This document shows, piece after piece, positions 40,070 through 61,086 of a stretch of 64,000 nt of DNA. Made by a program: the position numbers and the translations under genes. The notes below the pieces were generated by a model. The model made no database searches. It was not told where the DNA came from and was given only the letters and a program-made list of their open reading frames with translations. Origin of the DNA: an uncultured Bacilli bacterium (GTDB lineage Bacteria; Bacillota_I; Bacilli_A; RF39; UBA660); NCBI GenBank assembly GCA_947629655.1, contig CANREL010000004.1:13577-77576 (forward strand), read 5' to 3'. Within the stretch, counting starts at the first letter, position 1. Every line of letters begins with the position of its first letter.

Positions 40070-40426
40070 ATGAAAAATAAGCAAAGTGGTCAAGCATTAA
40101 TAGAATTTGTCATTATTTTACCAGTTGTGATCTTGCTTATTTTTTCTTTTGTAGATTTGGGTAGAATTGTTTTAGAAAATAATAGATTAGAGAATTTAAC
40201 TACGAGTGTTATTGAAAAATATAATGAGACTAAAAAATATGATGATGTCATTTCTTATATCGATTCATTAGGATATGAAAAAGTTGATTTATCTATTTCT
40301 GCACATGATGATATGTTGACGATTAAACTCACTGAAAAAATTGACTTAGTTACGCCAGGACTTTCAAAAATCATGGGTGATCCTTATAAAGTTGAAGTAG
40401 AGAGAGTTGTTAAATATGAAAAATGA
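40070..40426 (+). CDS. TadE-like pseudopilin
   Basis: N-terminus MKNKQSGQALIEFVIILPVVILLIF matches the TadE-type hydrophobic segment (G/xxxxE[FY]). I prefer the ATG at 40070 over the track start at 40043. Confidence 0.65.
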   Translation: MKNKQSGQALIEFVIILPVVILLIFSFVDLGRIVLENNRLENLTTSVIEKYNETKKYDDVISYIDSLGYEKVDLSISAHDDMLTIKLTEKIDLVTPGLSKIMGDPYKVEVERVVKYEK

Positions 40427-41192: not shown

Positions 41193-41200
41193 GTGAAAAT

Positions 41201-41974
41201 ATGGAAAGTAAAAAAGGTAAAATTCTTACGATTACATCAATGAAGGGTGGAGTTGGAAAAACGATGGTGACGATGCTTCTAGCTAATGTTTTTTCGAAAT
41301 GTGGTAAAAAAGTATTAGTTGTCGATTTGGATTTATACAATGGTAATTTAGCTTTTGCTTATAAAACTAGAGTAAAAAGTTCTATCTATAATTTGTGTGA
41401 TGACATAGCTAATAATCGTTTAGTCAATGGAATAACATCTGAATACGTTTCAAAGATAAGTGATAATTTATACTTTATCGCGGCACCTAAGGATCCACGT
41501 CAAGCTAATAAGATTGATAATAAATATCTCGATAGCATTTTGAAATCATTATCTTTTTTATACGATGTCATTTTAATCGATACTAATCATATATTAAGTG
41601 TTTCTAACATGGTCGCTTTTGAAAACAGTTATAAGATTGTTGACCTTGTCACCAATGACAGCTTTGATTTACAGAGTACGAAGAGTTTTGTGGCCATCTG
41701 TAAGAACATGGGTGTTGACAATTTAGTTTTGATGTTAAATAACGCCATTGATTCACGAAGAGGTTACTATACGACTTATGACATGAAAAATATTACGAAG
41801 AAGAATATTGATTATACAATTCCAAGCGCTTTCTATTTAAAGAATTTTGATCAGTTGGTAATGGATGGTAAGATTGGTTTCTTTGATGAATATTTAAAGG
41901 GTGAAGCTAAAAAGAGTTTGGAAGATTTTGCTGGTCACATGTTAAGTCTCATTGATGATGGAGGTAAGGAATAA
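41201..41974 (+). CDS. TadZ/CpaE-like ParA/MinD-family ATPase
   Basis: Deviant Walker A motif SMKGGVGKT and a DTNH Walker B-like motif. It sits immediately upstream of the CpaF ATPase. Confidence 0.7.
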   Translation: MESKKGKILTITSMKGGVGKTMVTMLLANVFSKCGKKVLVVDLDLYNGNLAFAYKTRVKSSIYNLCDDIANNRLVNGITSEYVSKISDNLYFIAAPKDPRQANKIDNKYLDSILKSLSFLYDVILIDTNHILSVSNMVAFENSYKIVDLVTNDSFDLQSTKSFVAICKNMGVDNLVLMLNNAIDSRRGYYTTYDMKNITKKNIDYTIPSAFYLKNFDQLVMDGKIGFFDEYLKGEAKKSLEDFAGHMLSLIDDGGKE

Positions 41975-43359
41975 TGAAGAAATCTAGTTGGTTAGAAGAA
42001 TTTGATGTAGTTGATCTATCTCCTAAAGTTGATACTCATGAATCTGATTATGAAGTGTTTGAAGATAAGAAGTTACTCGACAATTTTAGAAATAGTATCA
42101 TTCAGGAATTGATCGATAGTAATATAAGTGATAATAGTAATTTATCACAATACATAAATGAAGAAATAGACCGCATTACTGATGGATATGATTTGAGTGG
42201 TCAAGAGAGAAATTATCTTTTGAATTTGATTGAAAATGAAGTTAATGGTTATGGACCAATTACGGAGCTTTTGGATGATAAAAACGTTACAGAAATAATG
42301 ATAAATGGTCCAGATGAAATATATATTGAAGTCGATGGTGTTCTATCACGTGATAAAAGTGTTTCTTTTATCAATGCTGATCACATCATTCGAACTGTTC
42401 AAAGAATAATTCAACCCCTTGGTAGAACGATAGATTCCGCAAGTCCGATGGTCGATTCGCGACTTCCTGACGGTTCAAGAATTAATGCGATCATTCCACC
42501 ATTGTCTGTCAAAGGACCAGTGGTGACAATTCGTAAATTTAAAGATGATATCGACAATATCGATTCTCTAATTGGTAATGGAACACTAACACCTTATATG
42601 GCTAGATTTTTAGATGCCTGTGTCGATGCACGATTAAATATTTTGGTCTGTGGTGGTACTGGTAGTGGTAAGACGACACTTCTAAACGTCTTATCAAACT
42701 TTATCGGTAATGAAGAGAGAATAATCACGATTGAGGATGCTGTCGAATTGCGATTAAAACAAGATCATGTCATTTCACTTGAGACTAAAAGTACTAACTA
42801 TGATCAAGAAGGCGAAGTGACAATTCGTGATTTGGTCAGAAACTCATTACGTATGCGACCTGACCGCATAATTGTTGGTGAAGTTCGTGGTAAAGAAGCA
42901 TTTGATATGCTTCAAGCGATGAATACTGGTCATGATGGAAGTTTGACTACGTTGCATGCCAATGGTTGTAGAGACGCTTTAAATAGACTTGAAACGATGA
43001 TTTTAATGGGTGAGTTGGAACTTCCTATCAAAGCTATCCGCGGTTATATAGAAAGCGCAATTGATATCGTCATATCAGTTGAAAGATTGAGTGATGGTAA
43101 GAGAAAAGTTACATCAATATCAGAAATTGTCGGTTTTGATGGGGAAAACATTCAATTAAAAGAAATATTTGGTTTTATTAAACATGGATTGACGGAAAGT
43201 AAAGAGGTAAATGGAGAATTCATCCTATACGATTACGTTCCAGAAGTTTATGAAAAGATTAAGAGTCGTGGTATTAATACCATTGATGACATGTTTGTAA
43301 AAGAGGAAAAAAAGAAAAAAAGTTCAGTTAAAAAAACAACAAAAAAGACTAAAAAGTAG
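41974..43359 (+). CDS. tadA: Tad/Cpa secretion ATPase (TadA/CpaF family)
   Basis: Motifs VTEIMINGPDEIYIE, GGTGSGKTTLLN, RPDRIIVGEVRGKEAFDMLQAMNTGHDGSLTTLHAN. It ends in a K-rich C-terminal tail. Confidence 0.9.
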   Translation: MKKSSWLEEFDVVDLSPKVDTHESDYEVFEDKKLLDNFRNSIIQELIDSNISDNSNLSQYINEEIDRITDGYDLSGQERNYLLNLIENEVNGYGPITELLDDKNVTEIMINGPDEIYIEVDGVLSRDKSVSFINADHIIRTVQRIIQPLGRTIDSASPMVDSRLPDGSRINAIIPPLSVKGPVVTIRKFKDDIDNIDSLIGNGTLTPYMARFLDACVDARLNILVCGGTGSGKTTLLNVLSNFIGNEERIITIEDAVELRLKQDHVISLETKSTNYDQEGEVTIRDLVRNSLRMRPDRIIVGEVRGKEAFDMLQAMNTGHDGSLTTLHANGCRDALNRLETMILMGELELPIKAIRGYIESAIDIVISVERLSDGKRKVTSISEIVGFDGENIQLKEIFGFIKHGLTESKEVNGEFILYDYVPEVYEKIKSRGINTIDDMFVKEEKKKKSSVKKTTKKTKK

Positions 43360-43370
43360 GAAGTGATAAA

Positions 43371-44387
43371 ATGGATACAGCACTTGATATAATCATTTTT
43401 ATAATTCAAGTGATAACAGGATTTGTACTGTTGTACATCGCTTATCGTCTATTCAGATTTTATCGAACAGTAGGGTTTGATAAGCGCTTTGGACCTTATT
43501 CTGTCGAATTGTTAGAAGATGATAGTGAATCGTTTTTTGACATGGTCAGTTATTATTATGACAAAGTACAAAATTATCTTTCAAAGTCTTTGATAAAAAT
43601 AAAAATATTTGATAGTTATAGTAAAAAATATGAAAAGTATAGTTATGGAAAAAGAGTTAATGCGATAGATGATATGAATTATATATCGAAAAAGATATTC
43701 ATTGGTTTACTATGTGTATTTCTACTATTATTCTCTTGTATTTTTAGATATGTACACGTAAGTTTACTATCGATTTTATTAGCTTTCTTAGTAGGTTTTT
43801 TTGCTCTTGATGTCTATTTGATAATTTATGATAGAATGCGAAAAAACAGTATTGAAAAAGATATTAATAAAGCGGTCATCATCATGAATAATGCCTTTAA
43901 ATCAGGTTATAGTATCATGCAGGCAATATACCTTGTCCATACACAAATGGATGGGGCGATAAGTGAAGAATTTAGAAAGATGTACATCGATATTACTTTT
44001 GGGTTGAACATGGAAGTAGTCTTTAATCGTTTCGCTGATCGCGTTGATTGTGTTGAAGCTCGCTACATGGCTACATCTTTAGGTGTTGTCAATAGGACTG
44101 GTGGAAATATCATTCAAGTTTTTGATGCCGTTGAAAGAAATGCTACGACGAGGCAACGATTGAAAGAAGAACTTAGCAGTGTTTCAGCATCGGCTCGTGC
44201 TATGTTTAAGATTTTGGTATGCATTCCAATATTCATAATTGGTATTCTATTGATTTTAAATCCTACTTATTTTGCACCACTATTCAAAACACCAATAGGT
44301 ATTTTGTGTTTGTTATTGAGTGTGATCATATATGTTTTATACATCATCATCATTAGAAAAATTATATATGTGGAGGTTGATTTATGA
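43371..44387 (+). CDS. tadB: TadB-like platform protein (T2SS-F domain)
   Basis: Polytopic protein with a GspF-like cytoplasmic domain (MNNAFKSGYSIMQAIYLV...EEFRKMYIDITFGLNMEVVFNRFADRV). Confidence 0.75.
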   Translation: MDTALDIIIFIIQVITGFVLLYIAYRLFRFYRTVGFDKRFGPYSVELLEDDSESFFDMVSYYYDKVQNYLSKSLIKIKIFDSYSKKYEKYSYGKRVNAIDDMNYISKKIFIGLLCVFLLLFSCIFRYVHVSLLSILLAFLVGFFALDVYLIIYDRMRKNSIEKDINKAVIIMNNAFKSGYSIMQAIYLVHTQMDGAISEEFRKMYIDITFGLNMEVVFNRFADRVDCVEARYMATSLGVVNRTGGNIIQVFDAVERNATTRQRLKEELSSVSASARAMFKILVCIPIFIIGILLILNPTYFAPLFKTPIGILCLLLSVIIYVLYIIIIRKIIYVEVDL

Positions 44388-45097
44388 AAAAGGTAAAGAA
44401 TAAGAAAAGAACTCTTTCACGTAGTATTTTTTCTAAGAGACAAATCGATAGAATTCAAAGAAAAATCGATTTATTAGGTGAAAATAGTAAATTTGATGCG
44501 ATTTTCTTCTTAAATTTGCGCTTTATTTCTTCCATAGTTCTATTTTTAGTGGTATTATATGTATTTGAGTTGGGGTACTTCTTAGCACCACTAATCACGT
44601 TTATTTACTATTATTTAATTTACTATCTTTTAATTGAATACAATATAAATAAGAGATGTGATAAATTAGATGTTGAAGCGATGTATTTTTTTGAAGTTAT
44701 GACTTTGGCATTAGAATCTGGTAATAATTTAAAAAATGCTTTAGATATGACTTGTAGTAATGTGGACAATGAATTGTCTAGAGAATTTCGTAAAGCTCTT
44801 GATGAAGTTGATTACGGAAAGAGTTTGAATGAAGCTTTAGAGAGTTTGAAGCTTAGAATACCTTCGGATACAATTAACAATATTATTTTGAATATCATGC
44901 AATCTAATATTTTTGGTAATAATATAACTAATGATATGTACAATCAATTGGATTACATTAGAGATAGAGAAATTCAAAAAGCTAAGAGTAGAATTAGTAA
45001 AATACCTCTATACGTATCAGTCATTTCAGTCGTATTTTATGTACCTTTGATAATGTTGTTGATTTTATCACCAGTTATAATAGAATTTTTAAGTTAG
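44384..45097 (+). CDS. tadC: TadC-like platform protein (T2SS-F domain)
   Basis: Overlaps tadB by 4 nt. It has a GspF-like domain (LALESGNNLKNALDMT...REFRKALDEVDYGKSLNEALESL). Confidence 0.7.
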   Translation: MKKVKNKKRTLSRSIFSKRQIDRIQRKIDLLGENSKFDAIFFLNLRFISSIVLFLVVLYVFELGYFLAPLITFIYYYLIYYLLIEYNINKRCDKLDVEAMYFFEVMTLALESGNNLKNALDMTCSNVDNELSREFRKALDEVDYGKSLNEALESLKLRIPSDTINNIILNIMQSNIFGNNITNDMYNQLDYIRDREIQKAKSRISKIPLYVSVISVVFYVPLIMLLILSPVIIEFLS

Positions 45098-45108: not shown

Positions 45109-45828
45109 ATGAGTGGACATTCAAAGTGGGCAACTATCCATAGAAAAAAAGGATTATTGGATGCTGAAAGAGGAAAGATTTTCCAAAAGATTGCTAAAGA
45201 ATTATACGTAGCTGCGAAAGGGACAAATGGTAATCCAGATGATAACCCCGGTTTGCGCTTAGTAGTTGAAAAGGCAAAGAGTAATAACATGCCTAAAGAC
45301 AACATTCAAAAAGCGATTGATAAAGCTGTTAAATCAGCTGGTGGTGAAGACTATGAATCAGTTAGATACGAGGGATATGGTCCAAATGGTGTCGCATTCA
45401 TGGTTGATTGCTTAACTGATAATCGCAATAGAACAGCGATGCTTGTCAGATCAACTTTTACTAAACGTGGTGGAAATCTTGGAACTGACGGATCTGTTTC
45501 ATACATGTTTGAAAGACGTGGGGTTATCGTCATCGATAAAACTCTTGAAGAAGATGAAGCAATGATGGTATGCCTAGATAATGGTGCAGATGATTTCATC
45601 GTCAATGATGACAGTTATGAAATATATACGACACCTGATGATTTCATCAAAGTAAAGACAGCTTTAGAAGAAAGTGGTGTCAAAGAGTTTTTAACTAGTG
45701 AGATTACATATGTAGCTAATAATTTAGTTGAACTTGATGAAGAAGCAACAGAAAGAGTCATGGCCTTAGCTGATGCTCTAGATGAAATTGATGACGTTCA
45801 AAACGTATATCATAATTTGAGTATTTAA
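45109..45828 (+). CDS. yebC: YebC/PmpR-family transcriptional regulator
   Basis: Canonical N-terminus MSGHSKWATIHRKK, with family-wide collinearity. Confidence 0.92.
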   Translation: MSGHSKWATIHRKKGLLDAERGKIFQKIAKELYVAAKGTNGNPDDNPGLRLVVEKAKSNNMPKDNIQKAIDKAVKSAGGEDYESVRYEGYGPNGVAFMVDCLTDNRNRTAMLVRSTFTKRGGNLGTDGSVSYMFERRGVIVIDKTLEEDEAMMVCLDNGADDFIVNDDSYEIYTTPDDFIKVKTALEESGVKEFLTSEITYVANNLVELDEEATERVMALADALDEIDDVQNVYHNLSI

Positions 45829-45877: not shown

Positions 45878-48800
45878 ATGAGCTATATAAAATCTTTTGA
45901 TGAAGAAGAATTTGAATCTTTAAAAGAGTATTGTCAAAAATATAGTTCTCAATATGGACTCAGTGCTCATGTCATGGAGTTATTAGATGAGAATGGACTT
46001 TATTATTTGAATAAATTTGTCAATGATGATGAAGATTTTGATGAACGTGATTTTGATACTTTAATAAGAGCTTTCTTTGATGGTTTTGATTTTTATTATG
46101 ATCGTTTAGATGATAATTATTTATTAGCGGCTAAAGAAAAATTAGAAGAGACTTTTTCATTCTTTGAAGATAGTCATTTAGATGATGAACACAAAAGTGA
46201 AATTGTCGATAATTTTTTTGAAATACTATCGAGTTATACGCGTGAAGAGTTGAGTGATAGTAAAGCTTTATACTATTTATTGACTTCTGATGTTTTTAGA
46301 AGGAGCAACATGGTTAAAGAATATTTGTACAATTCTTATAATTCGGTTGCTACTAGTAAAGAAAAGTTGGTCTTTTTTGTCAAAAATCTATATGATTTAT
46401 TGAACAAATTACCATATGAAGATGCTCACAAAGTCGATTATATATTTTTGAGTAGTTCTGATGCCTTCACTTATTTTTTAGATGTACCTGAAGAGATGAA
46501 TATCTTTTTTAATGAGAGAATTTTATCAAAATTTGGAAAAGAGACCTTGAGCTTTCTATTCAGAATGTCAGATTATTCTGTCTTCAGCAGTTTTTGTAGA
46601 TCTGATGATAAGTTTTTGTCTGTCGTAGCAGCTATGAATGAATACGTATTAAAAAAATATAATAAAAATTCTTATTTCTTTGATGGAGTTTTTAAATTTT
46701 TTAACAGATTTGAGAAAAAAGATATTAGAGCTAGAAAAATAATCATTGATCTATTCTCTGAATATTATGACAAATATTTTGAAGAAAGTAAAAAGAATGG
46801 TTTTGAAAACGATGAGATTTTTAATAATTTATTGGGATTAATTCTGCAACATCGTGATGTAATATATTTTTTGAATGAAAAAAATATTGAAAATTTAGAT
46901 GATTTCTTTAAAGCGACGAGAGAGAAAATAGATGAATTACACACGACTATATTTGGTAAGGAAGGTTTGGTCAAGTTTAAATATGGTGTCTTTGATCCAA
47001 AAAAAGATTTTCCACCTTTTGAGATGCGAGTACAGGGACTACACGATTTGAAAAATGCTTTCTTGCAAAGAGTTTATGGAATAACTTATGAAGATGCCTT
47101 TTATATCGCGTCAAAATATGGAACTTTTATCGAGCTATGTCAAGATGAAATAGCGGATGAAGATCGTGATGTTTATGAGATAGTTAAGACGATAACCGAT
47201 GTCGCTAATATGATTGATTACAATGGTAATAAAATAAATAATATTAGATTAGCTGCCCATGAATTTATTAAGAATAAGGGACTTTATAATTATAATAATG
47301 GGTCTTGTTATCCGATTCTATTATCATTGATTAATCGCATGTACATGCATGCATATAATGATTGTGTCTTTAAAGTTGATGAAAATTCTAAAGTTTTATA
47401 TCGTCAAAGAAAAGTTCCTGTAATTGATGCAGGAGTTAATTTCAACATGATTGTAAGTTCTATCAATGCTGTTGATGAGTTTTATACCAGTCGTGATAAC
47501 ATGATGGAGAAGTACAACATATCGAGTCGTTCCAATAATCAAGGAATTTGTGCAAGTTTTATCAATAATGAAAGTTTAGGAGTCATATCTTTACGCCAAC
47601 CATTAATTGGGTATGCCAATTTAGCTGATGACAGTTTGGATGCGATGGGAGTTGGTGATATATATTCCAAAACGATTGATTTAGATTTGTTGAGAGCTAA
47701 TTCTACAACTGGTGAGGGAAATTATTTCTTCACTCCTAAAAAATATATCGATTATACAAGATTTGGATATAACGAAATGGTCGTTGATCGCTTTTTGGTC
47801 AAAGATGATGACGATGCGATAAAAGTTCAACCGAGTTACATAGTTGTCTATAAAATAGATGACAATTATAAAAAGACTAGAATGTATAAAAAAGGAATAA
47901 GAATGGCTAGAGATTTTGGTGTTCCACTAGTCTTAGTTGACGTTCCAAAAGTTAAAGAAAATGAACGTGATATCATTCTTCAAAAAGAAAAAGAATTATT
48001 CAAAAGTAGTAAAGTCGATAAGGAATTATTAAATGAAATAGTAACGCGTTATATGAATAATTACAGTGGATCTTTAACGATTATGCGAAGTCGAAATCGC
48101 CGTGGAAATGAATGGCACTATCCAAAGGATTTCTCTGTGCGTGGTTTGACGAGATTTTTAGATAAAGTGGCTCGAAAGTTTGAAGATTTTGATGAAGCAC
48201 AAATAGAAGAGTGGAGTCAAGCTTTGAACGAAGTTTATAATTTAGAAAAAGAAAAGAACAAAATGGCTTTACAAATAAATGATTATGAGGATTCATTGAG
48301 TGGTGGAGAATTTTTACTCGATGATAAGATCATGTTTTCAGAATTTGTTCAAAATATCAAAGATCGCAATATCAATCGTCTTCTTCTCAGAAAGGGCATG
48401 TTTGATCAAGATAAATATTTACACATACCAGATGTCAAAGTACCAAGTGATGTCCAATTGATTGTCGATTTAGCAAACTTATTGTGTAAGAGTAAAGTTT
48501 ATGCCAATGTCAGTGGTCACAATGGGGAAAATATTTATCAGACGAAGAAGACTTATGATTATAGTGAAGAAGAAAAAAATGCTTATGGTCTCGTAATTTC
48601 TTATTTACTTGGGGACTATAGTACTAATTATTTTGCTAATCTCGATACTTGTGATATTACAAATATCAAAATTGATGAAAATATCCAACGCGTTGAGAGG
48701 TGCCTAGATGGCAATGATGCTTTTTCTAATCAGAATATCGATACAGAATTGTTATTAAAAGTTGCTACAGATATTGAAGATCTACCAACGGCAATCTTTT

Positions 48801-48958
48801 CTAAAGTGTTTAGACCATTCATTCAAGATTACAGTGCAAAGATGGGCGTTGCTCCAGATAAAGTACGCGATAATTTTCTTCGTAAGAAAGAACACATTTT
48901 TAGTGAGATGTCTAAATTTGCCCGTTCTGATAGAATTAATAAAGCAATTAGTAAATAA
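45878..48958 (+). CDS. large uncharacterised cytoplasmic protein, paralog A1 (1026 aa)
   Basis: RBS GGGTGGTGA. No signal peptide or TM helix. It has a helical N-terminal module, a conserved core (nt ~47410-48080) and a divergent C-terminal module, and is collinear with 53730-57098 and 57111-60092. Confidence 0.8.
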   Translation: MSYIKSFDEEEFESLKEYCQKYSSQYGLSAHVMELLDENGLYYLNKFVNDDEDFDERDFDTLIRAFFDGFDFYYDRLDDNYLLAAKEKLEETFSFFEDSHLDDEHKSEIVDNFFEILSSYTREELSDSKALYYLLTSDVFRRSNMVKEYLYNSYNSVATSKEKLVFFVKNLYDLLNKLPYEDAHKVDYIFLSSSDAFTYFLDVPEEMNIFFNERILSKFGKETLSFLFRMSDYSVFSSFCRSDDKFLSVVAAMNEYVLKKYNKNSYFFDGVFKFFNRFEKKDIRARKIIIDLFSEYYDKYFEESKKNGFENDEIFNNLLGLILQHRDVIYFLNEKNIENLDDFFKATREKIDELHTTIFGKEGLVKFKYGVFDPKKDFPPFEMRVQGLHDLKNAFLQRVYGITYEDAFYIASKYGTFIELCQDEIADEDRDVYEIVKTITDVANMIDYNGNKINNIRLAAHEFIKNKGLYNYNNGSCYPILLSLINRMYMHAYNDCVFKVDENSKVLYRQRKVPVIDAGVNFNMIVSSINAVDEFYTSRDNMMEKYNISSRSNNQGICASFINNESLGVISLRQPLIGYANLADDSLDAMGVGDIYSKTIDLDLLRANSTTGEGNYFFTPKKYIDYTRFGYNEMVVDRFLVKDDDDAIKVQPSYIVVYKIDDNYKKTRMYKKGIRMARDFGVPLVLVDVPKVKENERDIILQKEKELFKSSKVDKELLNEIVTRYMNNYSGSLTIMRSRNRRGNEWHYPKDFSVRGLTRFLDKVARKFEDFDEAQIEEWSQALNEVYNLEKEKNKMALQINDYEDSLSGGEFLLDDKIMFSEFVQNIKDRNINRLLLRKGMFDQDKYLHIPDVKVPSDVQLIVDLANLLCKSKVYANVSGHNGENIYQTKKTYDYSEEEKNAYGLVISYLLGDYSTNYFANLDTCDITNIKIDENIQRVERCLDGNDAFSNQNIDTELLLKVATDIEDLPTAIFSKVFRPFIQDYSAKMGVAPDKVRDNFLRKKEHIFSEMSKFARSDRINKAISK

Positions 48959-49017
48959 AAACTAAAGTGTAAATTAAAGTAAAATTGACGTAAAAACATT
49001 TTAGTTTTTTTTATTTT

Positions 49018-49058: not shown

Positions 49059-49877
49059 ATGGAAGATTTAGAAAAACTTGGAAAGTTTGAAACTTTACAT
49101 TTAGGTGGAACTGGTACTATGTACTTAGTACATGGGGAAACAAAAAATTACATTTATAAACCGGCTGAAAGTAAGTTCAGTCATCAAAAAGAACCTTTTA
49201 GAGGAATAGTTCAAGAATGTGCTTATGAATTACAAGAGATAGTTGATCCAGTTTCAGCGGTCGTATGTAGATATGTTGATGCGGGAAAGATTTGTGGATC
49301 TGTTCAGGAACTGATCGTCGTTGATAAAAATGCTCCTGACTATAGAGATATGCAATATGCTGGTCAAATACCTGAATTATCATCTTCAGAAGTTGATCAA
49401 TTCATGAGAGAATTTGTAACTGATTATTTATTGTACAATTATGATTCACACGGAAAAAATTTTATAACTGACCAACAGGGAATCATTAGAGGTATTGACA
49501 AAGAACAATCTTTTAGATACATGCGTGAAAAGAAAGCGCAAACACTTGATTTGTATTACTCACCTAATGCGGCTTATGGTGAAGCTGAACCAATATACAA
49601 TACTATTTTTAGAGCGTATCGCGATGGTAAATTAGACATTGATTACAGTGTCATCAGTGGATGCATGGATAGAGTTGAAGCAGTCAGTGAAGACAGATAT
49701 CGCGCCATATTCGCTCCTTATTGTGAAGCTTGTGGTAAAGCTTTTGGTCAAAATCCTAATGAGATGTTAGATCAGATTGTCGCAAGACGCAATACGATGC
49801 GTGAAAAAGTGGATACTTTCTTTCAGGGATTGACTGAGGAACGCGAAGTTAATTTGAGTTCAGGAAAGGGAAAATAA
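49059..49877 (+). CDS. minimal PI3K/PI4K-fold kinase (type II PI4K-like), substrate unknown
   Basis: Blocks are collinear with human PI4K2A as I recall it. GGTGTMYLV...IYKPAE matches GSSGSYFV...VFKPKNEE. GSVQELIVV matches GSFQLFVE. DYLLYNYDSHGKNFI matches DYIIRNTDRGNDNWLI. GIDKEQSF matches AIDNGLAF. Confidence 0.6.
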   Translation: MEDLEKLGKFETLHLGGTGTMYLVHGETKNYIYKPAESKFSHQKEPFRGIVQECAYELQEIVDPVSAVVCRYVDAGKICGSVQELIVVDKNAPDYRDMQYAGQIPELSSSEVDQFMREFVTDYLLYNYDSHGKNFITDQQGIIRGIDKEQSFRYMREKKAQTLDLYYSPNAAYGEAEPIYNTIFRAYRDGKLDIDYSVISGCMDRVEAVSEDRYRAIFAPYCEACGKAFGQNPNEMLDQIVARRNTMREKVDTFFQGLTEEREVNLSSGKGK

Positions 49878-49878
49878 T

Positions 49879-51147
49879 ATGTTAGATAGTGAGGATAAGA
49901 AGTATAATTTTCATTCTCATACTTTTAGATGTGGTCATGCTTCAAATCTTCCTGATTCCACTTATTTAAATGTGGCTTTAAATAACAACTATAATAAGTA
50001 TGGTATTACTGACCATGCGCCTGTTCATCCCATTTTTTATGGCGATTCCAAAATGCGCATGAATGATAGTGAGCGATATGAATATATAAATGCGATTAAC
50101 AATTTGAAAGTGATGTATGCTAAAGAACTAGAAGTCTTTTGCGGATTTGAAGCTGAGTATGACGAAATTATTGAAGAGTATCTATGCGATTTGCGCGATA
50201 GTGTCGATTACATGATTTTGGGACAACACTATGTCTTAAATAGAGATATTAGAAAAAGTCCCAATTATCCAATAGAGTATGCGAAAAAAGTTTGTAAAGG
50301 AATTGAGAGCGGTTTATTCGACATCGTTGCTCATCCTGATATCTTTATGAAATTTCGCACTTCTTTAAAAGATGATGATAGTAGAGAAACATTCATGAAA
50401 AATGCTTACTTAGCATCAAAAATGATTTGTGCTAAAGCAAAGGAATATAATGTACCGCTAGAATTAAATTTAGGAGGAGTCCACATCTTTCCTCGAAAGA
50501 GAATTGAAAGTTTAGATATTGCTCTACCAACTGATTTCTTTCAAGATGATGATGATATGGATTATATCGATTATCCAACAAATTTATTTTGGAATATAGC
50601 TATTGAAATGGGAAATAGTGCTGTCGTTGGAATCGATGCACATTTTCCAAATGAAATTGAAGATCGTGAAGAAAAATTAGAAAGAATTAATCGATATATT
50701 GATCTCTCTAAAATAAATTTTTTACCAAATTCTTATGATCCTGTTAAAGCACGTTTAAACAATCCCAAATTGGAAGAAGCATATCAAAAGACGAAGGACA
50801 GTTTAAATTCAGTTGAAGCGCGATTAATAGATGACATAGTTAGTAAGAGTCTTGAAAGTGATAAAGAAGTTAAGCGTCATTCTTTGGCAACACAAATATC
50901 ACGCAGTTTGAAGTCACCAACTCATATTAGAGCGGTTCCCTTTGGCAATGGTTTTCTAACTCAAGATCAAATATATGACGACATGACTAAAAGAAATAGA
51001 GATGAGTTAGCAATTGTCGCAAGAAATGGTATCATGAGAACAAAAAGTCGTGATAGTGATATTTTTAGAACAGAACTACTAAATGAAATAGATGCTTATT
51101 ACCGTCATCAAGAAGTTGTTAATAAAGAGATTAAAAAGAATAAATAA
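49879..51147 (+). CDS. PHP-domain phosphoesterase (HisJ/histidinol-phosphatase-like) with a ~130-aa C-terminal extension
   Basis: Metal-binding blocks FHSHTFRCGHA, GITDHAP, GFEAEY, ILGQHY, VAHPD and GIDAH. The ATG lies 1 nt after the kinase stop (TAAtATG). Confidence 0.8.
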   Translation: MLDSEDKKYNFHSHTFRCGHASNLPDSTYLNVALNNNYNKYGITDHAPVHPIFYGDSKMRMNDSERYEYINAINNLKVMYAKELEVFCGFEAEYDEIIEEYLCDLRDSVDYMILGQHYVLNRDIRKSPNYPIEYAKKVCKGIESGLFDIVAHPDIFMKFRTSLKDDDSRETFMKNAYLASKMICAKAKEYNVPLELNLGGVHIFPRKRIESLDIALPTDFFQDDDDMDYIDYPTNLFWNIAIEMGNSAVVGIDAHFPNEIEDREEKLERINRYIDLSKINFLPNSYDPVKARLNNPKLEEAYQKTKDSLNSVEARLIDDIVSKSLESDKEVKRHSLATQISRSLKSPTHIRAVPFGNGFLTQDQIYDDMTKRNRDELAIVARNGIMRTKSRDSDIFRTELLNEIDAYYRHQEVVNKEIKKNK

Positions 51148-51148: not shown

Positions 51149-51180
51149 AAAGAGTAAAACTTGTTTTTACTCTTTTGTTT
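51149..51180 (+). terminator. rho-independent terminator
   Basis: Hairpin aaagagtaaaa/cttg/tttttactcttt followed by a T-rich tract. Confidence 0.7.
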
Positions 51181-51210: not shown

Positions 51211-52503
51211 GTGAAAAAGATGGTTAATGTGTCAAATAAAAAGATATTATCGCTAACGCTTAATGAACTTATTAATATATCTTTAGATGATACTTTAGTC
51301 ATGTTGAATAATGATTTGACCAAAGTGGATAAGTATAGTTCTGATTATGCTTTATCAATCGCATCAGCTATCGTAAAAAGAATATTTTTAATTAAGAATT
51401 TTGCCCATCAATATGATAAATTTTATAAAATAATAACTTCTAATGAATTTAGAAATAATAAATATATTTATAGTGCTTTAAAAGATGAAAATACAACGCT
51501 TAGTGATTTGTTAGACGTCTATGATGATGCTGAAGAATTGACTAGTCTCATCGATGCCATTCTCATGAAAAATGAAAAGATGTTTGATGAATTAGTCTAT
51601 GGTCAATACAATGTACGTGAATTGTTTTCTTTAGAATTTGTCAATAAATTTAATCATAATTCTTTTAAAAGAATTTTATCTTTTTTGTTGAAAGATAGTG
51701 ATAGAAAAAGAGTTGTTAAAGCTCTATTCAAAAATAAGAATAATAAATTCATATACATGGTATCAAAAATGGATGATGTCGTTTTACAATACAGTAAAGA
51801 TGATACGAGTTATTTAGATGCCGTTTTAGTCATGTTAAATTACAACAATTATCGTCATCTCTTATGGGATTATTACAATAAATATATTGGTAATATAGAA
51901 AATGAGAATCTTATGAACAGTCCAGAATATCGTAAAGAAGTACCTGATGAGTTAAAAGAATTATTAAATTATACTTTTGCACTGATGGATTATAAGTATT
52001 TAAATGACAAAGTTCCTGAGATAATATCTAGTATCGATGAGTTGATAAGTTCTTTAAATGAAGGAAAAGATATGGTTCATACTACTGTTTTTGGGGTCAG
52101 TGGTTATGAAAAGGTCAAGAATGAAAGTTTTGATATCTTATTTGATTTTCCAAAGATGGATGATGAAAATAAATTGTTGAATTTAAAGATTGCTTTTTTT
52201 AGTAATATATATGGTATAACTTATGATCAAGCAGGGAAAATAATTGATAATTTTGATGATTTTATGAAAGATTTTGATGGATCTTTTGATAAAAAAGATC
52301 AATTGATATATGAGACAGTGATAGCGATGAAGTCTTTATATGATTTAAAGTTAGATGATAAAGATGGAATTGATCTATATCGTGAAGTATATTATAAATA
52401 TGTTAAAAAGAATGGATTATATGCTCCCGTTGAGTTATCAGCGGCAATCATGATGGAAGAGTTGATGCATAGAATGTATGAGAATTCTATAGAAATAATC
52501 TAG
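51211..52503 (+). CDS. paralog A4: N-terminal module only (430 aa) of the large protein family
   Basis: Collinear with the N-terminal ~500 aa of A1-A3 (for example TTVFGVSGYEKVKN...NIYGITYDQAGKII...YKYVKKNGLY...LMHRMYENS). It ends just before the position of the conserved core. The start is GTG 51211 or ATG 51220. Confidence 0.75.
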   Translation: MKKMVNVSNKKILSLTLNELINISLDDTLVMLNNDLTKVDKYSSDYALSIASAIVKRIFLIKNFAHQYDKFYKIITSNEFRNNKYIYSALKDENTTLSDLLDVYDDAEELTSLIDAILMKNEKMFDELVYGQYNVRELFSLEFVNKFNHNSFKRILSFLLKDSDRKRVVKALFKNKNNKFIYMVSKMDDVVLQYSKDDTSYLDAVLVMLNYNNYRHLLWDYYNKYIGNIENENLMNSPEYRKEVPDELKELLNYTFALMDYKYLNDKVPEIISSIDELISSLNEGKDMVHTTVFGVSGYEKVKNESFDILFDFPKMDDENKLLNLKIAFFSNIYGITYDQAGKIIDNFDDFMKDFDGSFDKKDQLIYETVIAMKSLYDLKLDDKDGIDLYREVYYKYVKKNGLYAPVELSAAIMMEELMHRMYENSIEII

Positions 52504-52537
52504 TTTTATGTGATAGAATGTTATTAGGAGGTCTACT

Positions 52538-53641
52538 ATGAGTGAAATTTATAAAGACAATGAAAGAGTAGATGAAAGAGAAGCAGAAAAGAATTCTATT
52601 TTGGATGATTACTTAAAAGACGTTGGGCCAATTTCAAAATTTATTAATGAGGGCTTTGAAGAGATTGATAGGGATCTTGGCGTTCAAGATGGTGTTTTAG
52701 GATTTGCGGTAGGAGATGCTTTGGGTGTCCCTGTTGAATTTTCAAGACGTGAAACTTTGATAGATAGACCAGTTGTTGATATGATGGAGTATGGTGTTCA
52801 CAATCAACCAAAGGGAACTTGGAGTGATGATACTTCAATGATGATTGCTACAATGGATGCCATTATCAATAGTTCAAAGATTGATTATCACAAGATAGCT
52901 GATAATTTTTGCCTTTGGGCTAGCAGTAGAAAGTTTAATCCTCATGGTAAATTGTTTGACATTGGAATTACGACGAGTGATGCTCTTAAGCGTTACATGT
53001 TTGAAGGATGTGAGCCTACAAAAGCTGGCAATAAAGGTTATTATGACAATGGTAATGGTTCACTAATGCGCATTTTACCTTTGGCATATTACTTTAATAG
53101 TAATAAGATGTCCGATGAAGAGATGGCTACTATCATCAATAATGTCTCATCAATAACGCATGCTCATCCAATCAGTTGTATGGGATGTTATCTATACGTA
53201 AAATATGCCATGGATTTATTAGATGGAAAAGATTTCAATGAGGCTTATCAAGATCTACTAAGATGTGATGTATCAATGTATGATAATGATACAGTCAAAG
53301 CTTATGGTCGTATTTTAAGTGGTGAACTTGGACAAATAAAGGATCAAAATAAGATTAAATCTAGTGGCTTTGTCGTCGATTCTTTAGAGGCATCTATTTG
53401 GTGTTGCTTAAATAGTGATAATTATAAAGTTGCGACTTTGAAAGCTGTCAATCTTGGCGATGATACCGATACGGTTGGAGGATTGACAGGAGGATTAGCG
53501 GGTATTAAATATGGACGTGAAAGTATTCCTAAGAATTGGGTCGATTCTTTAGCACAAAAAGATTATTTAGTCGAGTTGTGTGATGAATATCAAAAAACGA
53601 TAAAAAAAACAGCAAATTTGAATAAAATTAGACATGTTTAA
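52538..53641 (+). CDS. ADP-ribosylglycohydrolase (ARH/DraG family) with a ~47-aa N-terminal leader
   Basis: Motifs GFAVGDALGVPVEF, WSDDTSM, GNGSLMR and LGDDTDTVGGLTGGLAG, so the metal-binding acidic residues are present. RBS AGGAGG. Confidence 0.9.
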   Translation: MSEIYKDNERVDEREAEKNSILDDYLKDVGPISKFINEGFEEIDRDLGVQDGVLGFAVGDALGVPVEFSRRETLIDRPVVDMMEYGVHNQPKGTWSDDTSMMIATMDAIINSSKIDYHKIADNFCLWASSRKFNPHGKLFDIGITTSDALKRYMFEGCEPTKAGNKGYYDNGNGSLMRILPLAYYFNSNKMSDEEMATIINNVSSITHAHPISCMGCYLYVKYAMDLLDGKDFNEAYQDLLRCDVSMYDNDTVKAYGRILSGELGQIKDQNKIKSSGFVVDSLEASIWCCLNSDNYKVATLKAVNLGDDTDTVGGLTGGLAGIKYGRESIPKNWVDSLAQKDYLVELCDEYQKTIKKTANLNKIRHV

Positions 53642-53673
53642 AGAAAAAGTGTTATCATTTTTTCTTTTTTTTT
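53641..53673 (+). terminator. possible rho-independent terminator (A/U-rich stem)
   Basis: Hairpin aagaaaaa/10-nt loop/tttttctt followed by a T-run. Confidence 0.4.
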
Positions 53674-53701
53674 GACCTTGGTCATCAATATTTGTTACAA
53701 T
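53672..53701 (+). promoter_or_regulatory. putative sigma-A promoter of the A2-A3-ORF70 unit
   Basis: TTGACC, an 18-nt spacer and TACAAT, located 28 nt upstream of the ATG at 53730. Confidence 0.5.
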
Positions 53702-53729
53702 TATATTAGAATAGGATAGGTGTGGTAAC

Positions 53730-56700
53730 ATGGATGATCAAAGTATTGATAATGATTCTTTCTTGGAAGAAGATGATTTATATAGTGCAGTTGTAAACTC
53801 AGATGAAGAATTCGATGATGAGGATTTAGAAGATACACTTGATTTAGGTCTCTTTTCTAAAAATGATATGGACGAATCACCTAGTTTTGACGATGAAGAA
53901 GACTTACCGGAATTAGATAGTGATACTTTAAATGATCCTTTTCAAGATCCCTTTGATTCATCTTTGAGTAAAAGTTTCTTTCCACAGATGCAGGCCGTTT
54001 TAAAAAAGAGTGAAGCTATTGCTGTTAAACCAAGTATTTTAGATAAAAAAATTGTTGAATTAGAATCTATTCCCATTCAGGAATTGAGTGAAAAATTACT
54101 TGAAGAGATTAGAAGTTTAGAAAGTGAGACACCAGAATTTAGAAATGCACAATTACAAAGTATTTTTTCAAGAATATTAGAATTTCAACCAGTCAATAAG
54201 GCCGGTTCAACAAATGATTCGCATTTTGAAAAATATGAACAGAGATTGTTTACTGATCTAGTAAGTGCGATTGGCCTTTCCGATATCGATTTTGTCAAAG
54301 ACTTTTTAAAGTCAAGTTTTAAGTACGGCGGAAATAGTAGTAAAGTTCAACAGCGAAAATTATTATTACAAGTATTCGATTATTATGATACTCATTCTGA
54401 AGATGCCATTGAAAAATTCAATTACATATTTAGAAGTAGTGAAGCTATAGGTATAATGTTACTTGATGAACCAGAACTTTTAAAGACGCAATATTTTTCT
54501 AATCGTGTCATGGAACTATTTAGTAAAGAAAGTTTATCGCAACTTTATAGATTTAAATTTGTGATGGGTTATCAAGAGTTGGAGAATTTAGTCAAAGAAG
54601 AAAATGCTAAAGCTCTTTTTGTCGTTTCCCAAATGTGTAATTATAGTACCAATGTCATCGGTCATGATTTTGAATTCATGTCAGCTGTTTTTAAACAAAT
54701 TTCAACAAATCCAAAATTTTTTCAGTTGTTGAGTGATTCTTATGATTCTTTAGTTCATGGTGATGAAAAAGCTCATATGGCCAAAAAGGAATTAGAACCC
54801 GAATTTCGTAAATTGATGAATTATATATTGAATCAGTCATATGATAAAAGAGCGCTTGGTAGAAGTGACCATAGTAATATTTCAACACTTGCTGATTTTA
54901 TGAAATATGTTTCTAAACAGAGTGAAGAATTTCATGATTATGTCGTTAGACCTGGTACTTTATCAAAGATAGAAGATGAAACTTTTGATCCTGAAAATGA
55001 TTTCTTGAAAATTACTGATAAACAAGATTTACAAAATTTTAAACGTGGTATATTGATGGGAATTTATGGTATAAGTTTTGAAGAAGCTAAACATTACGTA
55101 TCACAATATGGTCAATACATGGAAGCTTTGGAAAAAGGAATTGTCGATGAAGATAAAGAAATTCTTCAGGTTTTAAAATCCATATGTTCAATTGTCAAAC
55201 TAGATGAAACTGATCAAAATTTTGAATCAAAAATTAGTCAGTTACAAACTGCTTATGCATATCAGATTAAGAAAAATGGACCTTATTTCCAAGATAAATA
55301 CGTTTCGACGATGATTCTTCAAGGTTTATTCAATAGAATGATAATGAATACTTATAACAAGAGAAATCTTTTAGCTTCCAGTTGTGAAGAACTTGGACGT
55401 GATGACGATGTAGTCTTGTTGGATGCGGGATATGATTTTGATATGGTAGTAACGTCTTTTAGTGGCGTTGAGAGTTTTTATCAATCTGGAGTTAATATGG
55501 CTAGTAAGTGGAATACGGCAGCTCTATCAGAAGGTCAAGGTCTTTGTGTATCACATATTTCTTCTCAAAATTTAGGAGTAATTTCTTTACAATCTCCAAT
55601 TATTGGATTTAGTAAGATTCCACAATACGCTTTAGATAGTATGGGACCAAATGATATATTCACTAATATCTCCAGTTATAATTTGCGCATGTTAAATGAA
55701 AATCGTGGTCGTGTTCAAAATCGTTTTTTCATTCCAGCTAATGTCATGTCTGATGAACAGCGATATGGTTATAATGAGATTTTGCTTGAAAGATTTTTAT
55801 CACAAGATGAAAAAGGCGATATCAAAATACAACCTAGTTATGTGGTATGTTATAAGATGAATGAAAATTATAAACAGTCTTTAAATTATAAACAATCTTT
55901 GAAAGTAGCTAAAGACTTTGGCATTCCAATGGTTGTCGTCGATGTCATGAAGATTAAGGAAAAAGAACAAAGTATCATCGAAGAACAACAACAACAATTG
56001 TTGAGTAGTGAAAAAGTCGATCTTGCAATGATGCATGATATTGTGACGCGATATATGAATAATTATACGGGATCTTTGACCATGTGTTGGGAGAATCAAT
56101 CTGATTGGCGCTATAGAGAAGATTTCTCAGTACCGGGAATGCGTAATTTTTTTGATGAAGTATTTCGAAAAATTTCCAGTATTGATGATGAAAATTTACA
56201 AAAAGAGTGGTTGGATGCTTTAGAATTCGCTTATCGTGATGAAAAGAGAAAGAATGATTCTGCTCATAAAGTTAGCAGTTATAAAGGATCAGTTCGAGGA
56301 TTTATTTTTGATCGTGATATGGAGAGTGGTGGATTTGATCTGTTGACTAGAATTACTGATGCAAGAAATGGAAAGTTCACTTATGCAAGCGAAGTGTATG
56401 TGGAAGATGAACCAACTGCTGATTTAGGTATTGTAACGCAAGTTAAAGTTACTAAAGTCATGTTATCGGATGGTGTCACAGAAGGTATTTTTGTCACTCC
56501 ACAAGAACTTAAAGAGGAAGATATTGCCATTATCAGTCTAACTAATGCGATGGAGATGGGTTCAACTTTTGACCTTGAAGATTATTCTCTAAATGGAGTT
56601 GATGGTTTTGCCATAAAATATAATGAGGTAGAAGATCAAGATGTTGTCGCAGCTGAAAATTTAGTCGTAAGTTATCTATTTGCCAATTTTGAAAGTGCCT

Positions 56701-57098
56701 TTATTGAAGATGTAGGTTTTGATCTCGGTAAGAAAGTGGCTGATGAATATGAATTGAATTTGGAACCAAACTATGACGTCACCTACAAATTTGATAACTC
56801 ATTATATAGTTCGGTATTCAATAAGAATTCGGAGAATCATCTCGATTTCAACCACGATATAATGGATAAGTACATCACTAAGATAGAGACGATGGACGAT
56901 AAAGATTTCTTAAAGATATTTACGCCAGTAATAGATAAAAAAGCAAGTGCTCTACAAAAGAGTCAAGAAGAGATAGGTGCCATTCTATTGGATCGCAAAG
57001 CCAATATTCGTTCACAATTCAACAACTTAGAACAGCACATCGCTATTGTTAATGGTGAAGCAGTAGACGTTATCAGTGATCATTTATCAACAAAGTAA
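53730..57098 (+). CDS. large uncharacterised cytoplasmic protein, paralog A2 (1122 aa) with an acidic N-terminal tail
   Basis: The first ~80 aa are D/E-rich. The rest is collinear with A1 and A3. The conserved core lies at nt ~55410-56085. Confidence 0.8.
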   Translation: MDDQSIDNDSFLEEDDLYSAVVNSDEEFDDEDLEDTLDLGLFSKNDMDESPSFDDEEDLPELDSDTLNDPFQDPFDSSLSKSFFPQMQAVLKKSEAIAVKPSILDKKIVELESIPIQELSEKLLEEIRSLESETPEFRNAQLQSIFSRILEFQPVNKAGSTNDSHFEKYEQRLFTDLVSAIGLSDIDFVKDFLKSSFKYGGNSSKVQQRKLLLQVFDYYDTHSEDAIEKFNYIFRSSEAIGIMLLDEPELLKTQYFSNRVMELFSKESLSQLYRFKFVMGYQELENLVKEENAKALFVVSQMCNYSTNVIGHDFEFMSAVFKQISTNPKFFQLLSDSYDSLVHGDEKAHMAKKELEPEFRKLMNYILNQSYDKRALGRSDHSNISTLADFMKYVSKQSEEFHDYVVRPGTLSKIEDETFDPENDFLKITDKQDLQNFKRGILMGIYGISFEEAKHYVSQYGQYMEALEKGIVDEDKEILQVLKSICSIVKLDETDQNFESKISQLQTAYAYQIKKNGPYFQDKYVSTMILQGLFNRMIMNTYNKRNLLASSCEELGRDDDVVLLDAGYDFDMVVTSFSGVESFYQSGVNMASKWNTAALSEGQGLCVSHISSQNLGVISLQSPIIGFSKIPQYALDSMGPNDIFTNISSYNLRMLNENRGRVQNRFFIPANVMSDEQRYGYNEILLERFLSQDEKGDIKIQPSYVVCYKMNENYKQSLNYKQSLKVAKDFGIPMVVVDVMKIKEKEQSIIEEQQQQLLSSEKVDLAMMHDIVTRYMNNYTGSLTMCWENQSDWRYREDFSVPGMRNFFDEVFRKISSIDDENLQKEWLDALEFAYRDEKRKNDSAHKVSSYKGSVRGFIFDRDMESGGFDLLTRITDARNGKFTYASEVYVEDEPTADLGIVTQVKVTKVMLSDGVTEGIFVTPQELKEEDIAIISLTNAMEMGSTFDLEDYSLNGVDGFAIKYNEVEDQDVVAAENLVVSYLFANFESAFIEDVGFDLGKKVADEYELNLEPNYDVTYKFDNSLYSSVFNKNSENHLDFNHDIMDKYITKIETMDDKDFLKIFTPVIDKKASALQKSQEEIGAILLDRKANIRSQFNNLEQHIAIVNGEAVDVISDHLSTK

Positions 57099-60096: not shown

Positions 60097-60309
60097 ATGA
60101 AAGCAAGTGAATTGAGAAGAATTGTTGAAGAAAAAAAGGGTGTTAACAATGAGAGAAGTACTAGTAGTATTTCTAATTTAGATGATGATTATGGAAGTTA
60201 TCATGAGACTATTCTCAATAATTATTTAGAGGATGTCGGTGCTATTTCTAAATATATTAATGATGGATTAAAAGAAGTAGAAAAAAATAAGAATTTACCA
60301 AACGTTTAG
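60097..60309 (+). CDS. 70-aa protein homologous to the N-terminal leader of the ADP-ribosylglycohydrolase
   Basis: ATG lies 4 nt after the A3 stop and has an AGGAAAG RBS. TILNNYLEDVGAISKYINDGLKEVEKN aligns with ARH SILDDYLKDVGPISKFINEGFEEIDRD (14/27 identical, the rest mostly conservative). Confidence 0.6.
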   Translation: MKASELRRIVEEKKGVNNERSTSSISNLDDDYGSYHETILNNYLEDVGAISKYINDGLKEVEKNKNLPNV

Positions 60310-60375: not shown

Positions 60376-61086
60376 ATGGAACTAAAATATAAGAGAATTT
60401 TAATCAAGTTGAGTGGTGAAAGTTTAGCTGGTAAGATTGGACATGGCATAGATTTTGATAGAACTTTGGAAATTTGTAGTGAAATAAAGAAAGTTAGTGA
60501 TTTAGGTGTAGAAGTAGCTATCGTAGTTGGTGGTGGTAACTTCTGGCGTGGTCGTAGCAATATGCATATGGACAGATGTACATCTGATTATATTGGGATG
60601 CTTGGAACGACGATGAATGCTTTAGCGCTTGGTGATGCTTTTAAACAATTAGGACAAGATGTCAGAGTTCAAACGGGAGTTGAAATGCGCCAAATTGCAG
60701 AGTTTTATATCAAGAATAGAGCTGATCGTCATTTGAGTAAGGGAAGAGTTGTAATTTTTGGTTGTGGTACTGGTAGTCCTTTCTTCTCAACTGATACAGC
60801 AGCTGCTCTAAGAAGTGCGGAGATAGGAGCTGATGCGGTTTTAAAGGCCACGAATGTCAGTGGTATTTACACAGCTGATCCAAAGAAAGATGCTAATGCA
60901 ACGATGATTGATGAGATAACTTATATGGAAGTTCTAAATAAAAAATTAAATGTCATGGATTCGACAGCGATGACTCTATGCATGGATAATGATATTCCAA
61001 TAGTAGTGTTCAACATAAATGAAAAAGGAAATCTTTTAAAATTGATTGAAGGAGAGAAAATAGGGACAGTAGTAAGTAATAAGTAG
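60376..61086 (+). CDS. pyrH: UMP kinase
   Basis: Motifs [21 protein letters not shown] and [13 protein letters not shown]. Confidence 0.92.

Follow-up and report, generated by a model that had tools for sequence, protein, structure and literature searches.

A short helical paralog in a gene island of uncultured gut Bacilli, probably retained as a stand-alone gene after an ancient loss of its core

The window analysed here is the whole of a 64,000-nucleotide (nt) stretch from an uncultured Bacilli bacterium (GenBank assembly GCA_947629655.1, contig CANREL010000004.1, positions 13,577 to 77,576 of the forward strand). It is AT-rich (about 30% GC) and carries nearly all of its sizeable open reading frames (ORFs) on the plus strand. 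On the 3' side of a Tad-pilus cluster the gene order is yebC-A1-kinL-PHP-A4-S~ARH-A2-A3-S-pyrH, in which A1, A2 and A3 are long paralogs and A4 is a short one whose sequence stops before the core of the other three. The subject of this article is A4 and its relationship to the hydrolase gene ARH that follows it. The features of the island and of its two anchors are as follows (lengths in amino acids, aa).

45109..45828, plus strand: yebC, 239 aa, the upstream anchor, 77–91% identical across all related loci
45878..48958, plus strand: A1, long paralog, 1026 aa, with a helical N-module, an alpha/beta core and a helical C-domain
48957..49015: AT-rich hairpin and U-run 3' of A1, from RNA folding
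49059..49877, plus strand: kinL, 272 aa, with kinase-like motifs
49879..51147, plus strand: PHP-domain phosphoesterase-like protein, 422 aa, with a PF02811 match
51149..51180, plus strand: terminator-like hairpin and U-run, 3' of PHP and 5' of A4 (fold -13.3 kcal/mol, z -3.4)
51220..52503, plus strand: A4, stand-alone core-less helical paralog, 427 aa (alternative GTG start at 51211, 430 aa)
52504..52537, plus strand: A4-to-S spacer, with an extended -10-like element TGTGATAGAAT, an AGGAGG ribosome-binding site and no hairpin
52538..52678, plus strand: S-derived N-terminal extension of the ARH protein, ~47 aa, motif YLKDVGPISKFINEGFEEID (E 1e-9 with a hidden Markov model (HMM) of S)
52679..53641, plus strand: ARH domain (DraG/ARH-type) of the S~ARH gene, PF03747; the whole gene is 52538–53641, 367 aa
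53640..53675, plus strand: terminator-like hairpin and U9 3' of ARH (fold -12.4 kcal/mol, z -3.1)
53730..57098, plus strand: A2, long paralog, 1122 aa
57111..60092, plus strand: A3, long paralog, 993 aa, the closest relative of A4 in the window by BLASTP
60097..60309, plus strand: second, free-standing copy of S, 70 aa, closing the array ahead of pyrH (S HMM E 1.8e-11)
60376..61086, plus strand: pyrH (UMP kinase), 236 aa, the downstream anchor

The ORF of A4 (51211–52503, plus strand) encodes 430 aa when read from its GTG, and the ATG at 51220 was taken as the likely start because the copies in the database are 427 aa long. The protein, which ends in ...LMHRMYENSIEII directly before the stop codon, is collinear in alignment with the N-terminal helical parts of A1–A3 at 21–25% identity, with the IYGI[TSN] block and the NRMY helix both aligned, and its residues 4–423 match residues 25–461 of A3 (BLASTP, E 7e-33). 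The initial annotation of this DNA had equated A4 with the N-terminal ~500 aa of all three long proteins; the collinearity and both motifs hold, while the uniform length does not, as the part matched by A4 is about 460–545 aa and varies by paralog. Alignments and translation place the stop of A4 ~16 residues short of the VPVIDAG of A3, inside the interval of 10–25 residues before the core that had been proposed, with the final residues of A4 pairing with MNTYSDIL of A3. The last helix of A4 occupies residues 406–426 of 427 in the predicted model and its counterpart in A3 ends ~10 residues before the first core strand; as modelled, A4 stops where the last lead-in helix runs out, ahead of the alpha/beta core. 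No remnant of the core or of the C-domain was detected 3' of A4 (52300–53900) by tblastn, even at E<=10, when these two parts of A3 served as queries, which agrees with the earlier observation. ARH starts at 52538, 34 nt past the A4 stop, the spacer being TTTTATGTGATAGAATGTTATTAGGAGGTCTACT. A model built from the ortholog alignment represents A4 as a compact all-alpha protein of 25 helices (predicted local distance difference test, pLDDT, 87.4; predicted template modelling score, pTM, 0.82), and A4 is accordingly predicted to fold on its own, as had been suggested for the N-module.

A database search returned 37 homologs of A4 at 41–64% identity, with more than 30 orthologs, and the homologs are 403–428 aa long save for two partial matches (242 and 244 aa) from contigs of less than 1.6 kb. 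In an alignment of 32 sequences (A4 and 31 homologs), the terminus RRMYNNSIE[LI][LI], followed at once by the stop codon, is common to 30 of the 31 homologs; the lone exception, P0032, lies on a 1.6-kb contig and stops ~20 residues earlier. The end point of A4 is no chance truncation. In a neighbour-joining tree of N-modules (Poisson distances, midpoint rooting), 24 A4-type sequences form one clade with a bootstrap of 100, apart from the A1-, A2- and A3-type clades.

Substitution patterns also indicate constraint on A4. Two pairs of loci with near-identical A4 genes (L005/L008 and L001/L002) show 5 synonymous and 0 nonsynonymous differences each, giving 10 against 0 when pooled. The least saturated of the other pairs gave a ratio of nonsynonymous to synonymous divergence (omega, dN/dS) of 0.19 (L011–L003) and 0.30, values that are rough since dS is saturated for most pairs, and the omega of distant pairs was discounted on that account. 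Over the same species pairs throughout, dN was 0.25–0.40 for A4, 0.49–0.72 for the N-modules of A1–A3, 0.27–0.43 for their cores, 0.55–0.74 for their C-domains, 0.26–0.35 for ARH and 0.06–0.07 for yebC. The dN of A4 is thus about half that of the homologous N-modules, and because of this lower value A4 is considered more constrained than the matching part of the full-length paralogs; the rate comparison that the initial annotation had called for gives no sign of relaxed selection. Neither variable ends nor a broken frame was found among the orthologs, and the earlier view that A4 is not the product of random decay is borne out by its intact frame, its constant length and end, the absence of nonsynonymous changes in the close pairs and its low dN. 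Judged from these sequence comparisons, A4 is an old, intact and well-conserved stand-alone gene under purifying selection.

The context of A4 was recovered in 13 distinct lineages of a clade of uncultured Bacilli from gut and rumen, a 14th locus (L014) ending inside A4. The gene orders are listed below with the identity of each A4 to that of the window.

Window, 100%: yebC-A1-kinL-PHP-A4-S~ARH-A2-A3-S-pyrH
L006, 64%: A4-S-ARH-A2-A3-S-ABC
L032, 62%: A4-S-ARH-four or five long forms (two split)-S
L005/L008, 59%: yebC-A1-kinL-PHP-A4-S-ARH-three long forms
L030, 57%: as L005, plus two extra small ORFs before A4
L009, 49%: yebC-A1-kinL-PHP-A4-ARH (8-nt gap, no S)-A2-S ... pyrH
L010, 48%: yebC-A1-kinL-A4-A3-type-S (no PHP, no ARH)
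L031, 52%: yebC-A1-kinL-PHP-A4-S-ABC transporter gene (no ARH, no A2/A3)
L007, 52%: yebC-A4-S-pyrH
L029, 45%: yebC-A4-S-pyrH
L003, 46%: yebC-A4-unrelated genes
L011, 43%: yebC-A4-unrelated genes
L001, 41%: yebC-A4-unrelated genes

A4 is the constant member of these loci and is kept in all 13 lineages. ARH is present in six of them (window, L006, L032, L005/8, L030 and L009) and absent from seven (L010, L031, L007, L029, L003, L011 and L001), and at five of the latter (L007, L029, L003, L011 and L001) A4 is the sole family member at the yebC locus, L007 and L029 having only A4 and S between yebC and pyrH. A long paralog lies directly 3' of A4 in L010, and a hairpin with a T-run lies directly 3' of the A4 stop in L001 and L003, with a similar though less clean structure in L011. 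ARH was found only where long paralogs come next; the gene after it best matches A2 in five of the six ARH lineages and matches A2 and A3 about equally in L032. Neither an A4 fused to ARH nor a full-length A4, two arrangements that the initial annotation had raised, occurs in any of the loci of the 13 lineages, and no fused ORF was found among the database homologs. Two accessory blocks vary around A4: A1-kinL-PHP on its upstream side, and ARH with the long forms of the A2/A3 type on its downstream side.

The history of these blocks can be read in part from two relationships. By A4 sequence, L009 with its full island is closest to L007, which has A4 and S only (73% identity), and L010, a locus with long forms, clusters with the A4-only lineages in the N-module tree. 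These kinships argue for repeated loss of the accessory genes with A4 retained, and repeated loss of everything but A4 would be the simplest history. The adjacency of A4 and ARH appears to be a lineage-specific arrangement and no domain swap.

Two of the loci have peculiarities of their own. In L032, two long paralogs (5323–8457 and 8555–12287) are split into ORFs of 651 and 343 aa and of 1044 and 188 aa, respectively, from which it follows that long forms decay in some lineages; the A4 of the same locus, of which only the last 256 codons lie on the contig, keeps the conserved C-terminal end. L030 is the only lineage with two extra small ORFs between PHP and A4 (9261–9904), one of 136 aa that includes a hydrophobic stretch rich in Gly and Ala, the other of 77 aa.

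The commonest gene directly 3' of A4 is not ARH but S, which encodes a protein of 63–82 aa with a motif (RE.AM..YL.DVG.ISK.IN...EI.) and no Pfam match. Using the S HMM, which was built from the ORFs of 63–72 aa that follow A4, S was identified directly after A4 in 8 lineages, among them L005/8, L006, L030, L032, L031, L007 and L029, and closing the array in five loci, L006, L009, L010, L032 and the window, where the exact 70-aa protein (60097–60309) is also found on 7 public contigs. In L005, L006, L030 and L032 the S that follows A4 is a separate ORF of 67–72 aa overlapping the start of ARH by a few bases. The N-terminal ~47 residues of the ARH protein of the window are S fused in frame, as identified by the HMM and by alignment to free-standing S; this fusion is confined to the window lineage, and the ARH of L009, 8 nt after the A4 stop, has no S part. 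It is because S is fused to ARH that ARH seems to start right after A4 in the window, and S stands between the two genes in five of the six ARH lineages (as the fused part in the window), the exception being L009. Two sequence variants of the fused 367-aa protein occur, spread over at least 4 contigs, so that the fusion is no assembly artefact. It suggests that the hydrolase is physically connected with the A-family proteins. The idea that S is the detached C-terminal tail of a long form, so that A4 and S would represent an internally deleted long gene, was rejected at an hhalign probability of 0.1%.

A spacer of 34–37 nt with TGTG[AT]TA[GA]AAT and AGGAGG is shared by the window, L006, L005, L030 and L032. 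The initial annotation had assigned the ribosome-binding site and a TGaTAGAAT element to ARH itself; in the other four loci the same junction precedes S, and the spacer, the ribosome-binding site and the TGTGnTAnAAT element are those of the A4-to-S junction and not specific to ARH. The TGTGATAGAAT element may act as a promoter. A scan with consensus promoters was uninformative in such AT-rich DNA (80 promoter-like sites against 92 expected), and a GC-based terminator scan missed the AT-rich hairpins that RNA folding of the spacers located 3' of A1, PHP and ARH. The A4–ARH spacer is unstructured (z +2.2). The positions of the hairpins suggest four apparent transcription units in the island, namely [A1], [kinL-PHP], [A4-S~ARH] and [A2-A3-S], and A4 and S~ARH, bracketed by two hairpins with none between them, are probably co-transcribed.

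In a profile search of 1.84 billion representatives, the A1–A3 family comprised 612 proteins at E<=1e-3 and 453 clusters at E<=1e-10, and it has no Pfam, NCBIfam, PADLOC or PDB sequence match. About 45 of the representatives are full-length relatives and only four are of the A4 type. The distant representatives (330–3240 aa) match only profile positions ~350–770, corresponding to the core and to the ~120 residues, from IYGIT to NRMY, that close the N-module, and in about 100 of them the conserved unit runs from the IYGIT helices through the core, while the first ~300–330 aa of the N-module are confined to proteins of this clade. A4 consists, on this evidence, of the clade-specific N-terminal ~300 aa and the universal lead-in helices, minus the core and the C-domain. 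Its end is a structural boundary, from helices to alpha/beta core, and not an evolutionary module boundary, and because the conserved unit crosses this point A4 is interpreted as truncated rather than ancestrally short.

The distant members lie on Firmicutes-like contigs of 18–29% GC. A metagenome scan for them, made with an alignment of six sequences of the subfamily, gave 14 loci with no ARH, kinL or PHP within 10 kb, and the neighbours in two of the distant loci (L016 and L024) include the housekeeping genes tilS, ftsH, yabG and ksgA. No relatives of the distant subfamily were found in viral contigs.

The core was modelled as part of A3 (residues 330–800; pLDDT 81.9, pTM 0.83), giving lead-in helices, an alpha/beta domain of ~180 aa and further helices. 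Conserved core residues among 150 representatives are C/S195, S197, D231, S/T234, R262, N266, E267, R272 and Y288, along with P; a dozen residues are near-invariant and the Glu of the N-E pair is 100% conserved. A3 keeps every listed residue, and by eye A1–A3 all appear to keep them. One weak fold match of the core to ADP-ribosyltransferase (ART) is the sole lead on its function. A Foldseek search of the core model against the PDB gave nothing (best E 0.34), no curated ART family matched the core, and the comparison of 16 core segments with Pfam at E<=10 returned nothing recurrent. Neither an R-[ST]-E nor an H-Y-[EDQ] triad was found in the canonical strand order, and there is no conserved Arg or His before the C-x-S strand. 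In the mono-ART fold of the CteC type (PDB 8ux2) the triad is R65, S97 and E220, in the order R-S-E, whereas the core has the order C/S-x-S, D, R, N-E, R, and on its first strand neither an Arg nor a His is conserved. The modelled likeness to ARTs is a lead and not a finding, and the idea is attractive only because a DraG-type hydrolase lies in the island and Tri1 offers a precedent for a docking extension.

Within the core (~470–705 of A3), the distant subfamily has HG-x-C and TRHxHNE where the clade of the window has QG-x-C and TRYGYNE, three histidines being replaced in the latter with the invariant N-E, D, R and Y kept. This replacement may reflect a changed cofactor or metal requirement. 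A separate feature of A2 is a strongly acidic, disordered-looking N-terminus of ~80 residues rich in Asp and Glu (53730–53960), which is present in neither A3 nor A4.

The assignment of ARH to PF03747, to which the initial annotation's claim of an ARH gene 34 nt after A4 corresponds, is secure (226.2 bits against a cut-off of 26.2, E 8.9e-67; residues 52–332, profile positions 2–286 of 287). By eye, without a residue-level alignment to DraG, the protein contains GDALGVPVEF, WSDDTSM and LGDDTDTVG, which resemble the usual metal-binding motifs; the acidic metal-binding residues of DraG and Tri1 are an E-D-D set (PMC8120803). The PHP protein belongs to PF02811 (34.8 bits against a cut-off of 26.4, E 2.7e-8) and scores below the cut-offs of the NCBIfam models of the HisJ family. 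The match of kinL to Pfam HipA_C is weak and below the cut-off (E 0.016), and no sequence relative of kinL was found in the PDB; by eye it bears a DxHxxN-like NYDSHGKNF and a GIDKE, both of which the long forms lack at the aligned position. The gene comes after A1 in every lineage that has A1.

Several modules are shared among the proteins of the island: the N-module by A1–A4, the C-tail by A1–A3 and kinL, and S as a free or ARH-fused unit. Homology between kinL and the long forms extends over the C-terminal ~85 aa of each (hhalign 94.9%, E 4.6e-8; within A2, for example, in residues 978–1105), and in the distant protein P0105 (1257 aa) core and kinL occur in one chain, with kinL fused to the long-form C-terminus (BLASTP, E 2e-30). 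This sharing of modules fits a set of proteins that may assemble with one another. PADLOC gave no match for seven proteins of the locus at E<=0.1. The Tad-type pilus cluster that adjoins yebC upstream (40043–45097; TadE-like, CpaE/ParA-like ATPase, T2SSE ATPase and two T2SSF genes) is also found 5' of yebC in most related loci with a recovered upstream flank, with no functional link to the A-family evident.

Given these data, we consider it reasonably probable (roughly 0.6) that A4 is an anciently truncated, non-catalytic and retained paralog of the large N-module/core/C-domain proteins, independent of ARH. A4 kept the whole helical N-module when the core and the C-domain were lost, has since then been preserved by purifying selection as a gene in its own right, and would work as a binding or scaffold protein through the interaction surface of the N-module. 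S would be a small partner of A-family proteins, and the S~ARH fusion would tether the hydrolase to an A-family protein in the way that the extension of Tri1 docks onto its transferase. Some points weigh against this account. The binding role of A4 is something we infer, and the omega values are rough owing to saturated dS. Midpoint rooting places A4 as sister to all of the long forms, and since it does so the direction, truncation as opposed to fusion, is given solely by the outgroup argument. The A4-only status is a view of the yebC locus, and long forms may lie elsewhere in those genomes; S is missing from A4-only L001, L003 and L011, and lies at the array end and not beside A4 in L009 and L010.

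The initial annotation had favoured a module replacement, in which ARH took the place of the core and A4 and ARH form a two-gene equivalent of N-module plus core, with A4 targeting ARH. The arrangement in the window invites this reading, since the gap of 34 nt holds no terminator, the pair is flanked by hairpins and A4 stops at the helix/core boundary, and elsewhere the gap is only 8 nt (L009) and ARH lies 3' of the A4 region in six lineages. It is very unlikely all the same and has been largely refuted by the wider comparison: seven of the 13 lineages have no ARH, S is more often the neighbour of A4 and intervenes in all ARH lineages but one, ARH is found only before long paralogs (the next being A2-type in five of six), and no fused A4–ARH ORF turned up in the homolog search or the loci. 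As A4 orthologs down to 41% identity share the stop, the truncation most likely predates the association with ARH. A weaker form of the pairing, in which A4 is old and independent yet A4 and S~ARH act in the island lineages as a working operon, A4 guiding the hydrolase to targets that the long paralogs have modified, is compatible with the truncated-paralog explanation and not opposed to it, and we regard it as possible but rather unlikely. The operon-like arrangement, the spacer conserved in five lineages, the two variants of the fusion, the precedent of Tri1 and the weak ART-like fold match of the core all speak for it; against it, the core is no more than a candidate ART, no ARH was seen within 10 kb of distant members of the family, and the interaction itself is hypothetical.

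The polarity could also be the reverse, with a short A4 as the ancestor and the long forms arising from an A4 duplicate fused to a pre-existing core-containing gene. Such a history is distinctly unlikely, although the midpoint-rooted tree, the solitary A4 at the yebC locus of the most distant lineages and the clade-confined first ~330 aa of the N-module are what it would lead one to expect. In about 100 distant representatives that lack the clade-specific N-terminus, the lead-in helices which make up the last ~120 aa of A4 are found together with the core, from which it follows that A4 carries part of a core-linked unit; L010, with its long forms, groups with A4-only lineages, suggesting losses over gains, and the slower evolution of A4 is enough on its own to shift a midpoint root. 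That A4 is a deletion pseudogene or a decaying remnant is extremely improbable. A4 does lack the conserved core, and the split long forms of L032 show that decay occurs within the family, but conservation refutes this idea: the ORF is intact, over 30 homologs of the same length reach down to 41% identity, the 10 changes in near-identical pairs are all synonymous, dN is half that of the homologous N-modules, the predicted fold is confident, and A4 is kept where all other members are lost.

The finding is that of a core-less paralog which outlives its catalytic relatives; the retention of A4 in every lineage examined, and its slower evolution than the homologous part of the full-length proteins, argue for an independent role of the helical module. 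Without a swap of the core for ARH it is less striking than first claimed. Beyond A4, the locus reveals an orphan family, which counts more than 450 clusters in AT-rich Firmicutes and is without relatives in Pfam, NCBIfam or the PDB, and it holds the unannotated small protein S and the S~ARH gene fusion. Should the core be an ART, the island would represent a new reversible ADP-ribosylation system in gut Bacilli. All of this may be combined into one scheme, quite unlikely to be right in all its parts, in which A1–A3 form a large unannotated family with a divergent NAD-using ART-like core and the island is a double writer/eraser system of post-translational modification (A-core/ARH and kinL/PHP) docking through the N-module, the C-tail and S, with A4 as a catalytically silent hub and S~ARH as a tethered eraser resembling Tri1.

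The nearest known parallel to such a scheme is the Tre1/Tri1 pair of Serratia proteamaculans, an ADP-ribosyltransferase toxin and its DraG-like immunity hydrolase, the N-terminal extension of which docks onto the transferase and occludes it (PMC8120803). The ARH described here also has an N-terminal extension, but one derived from the free-standing S family, and with 182.2 bits against a cut-off of 490 it falls far under the level of the NCBIfam equivalog of Tri1 (NF041672). Its candidate partners are ~1000 aa long, cytoplasmic-looking by eye and tandemly duplicated, with no ART detectable by sequence; the locus, between yebC and pyrH, has no type VI secretion context, and A4 is without a counterpart in Tre1/Tri1. 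The DraT/DraG system shares the hydrolase family (PF03747) and would likewise correspond to a writer and an eraser in one locus, but ARH is below the cut-off of the NCBIfam DraG model (132 bits against 337, E 2.9e-38), neither a DraT homolog nor a nitrogenase context is present here, and the writer is at most a candidate. A4 itself, though it persists also at loci with no catalytic paralog near, may be compared with non-catalytic truncated paralogs and pseudoenzyme-like regulators, as it has lost the catalytic part of the long forms, has kept a predicted interaction domain and is under purifying selection.

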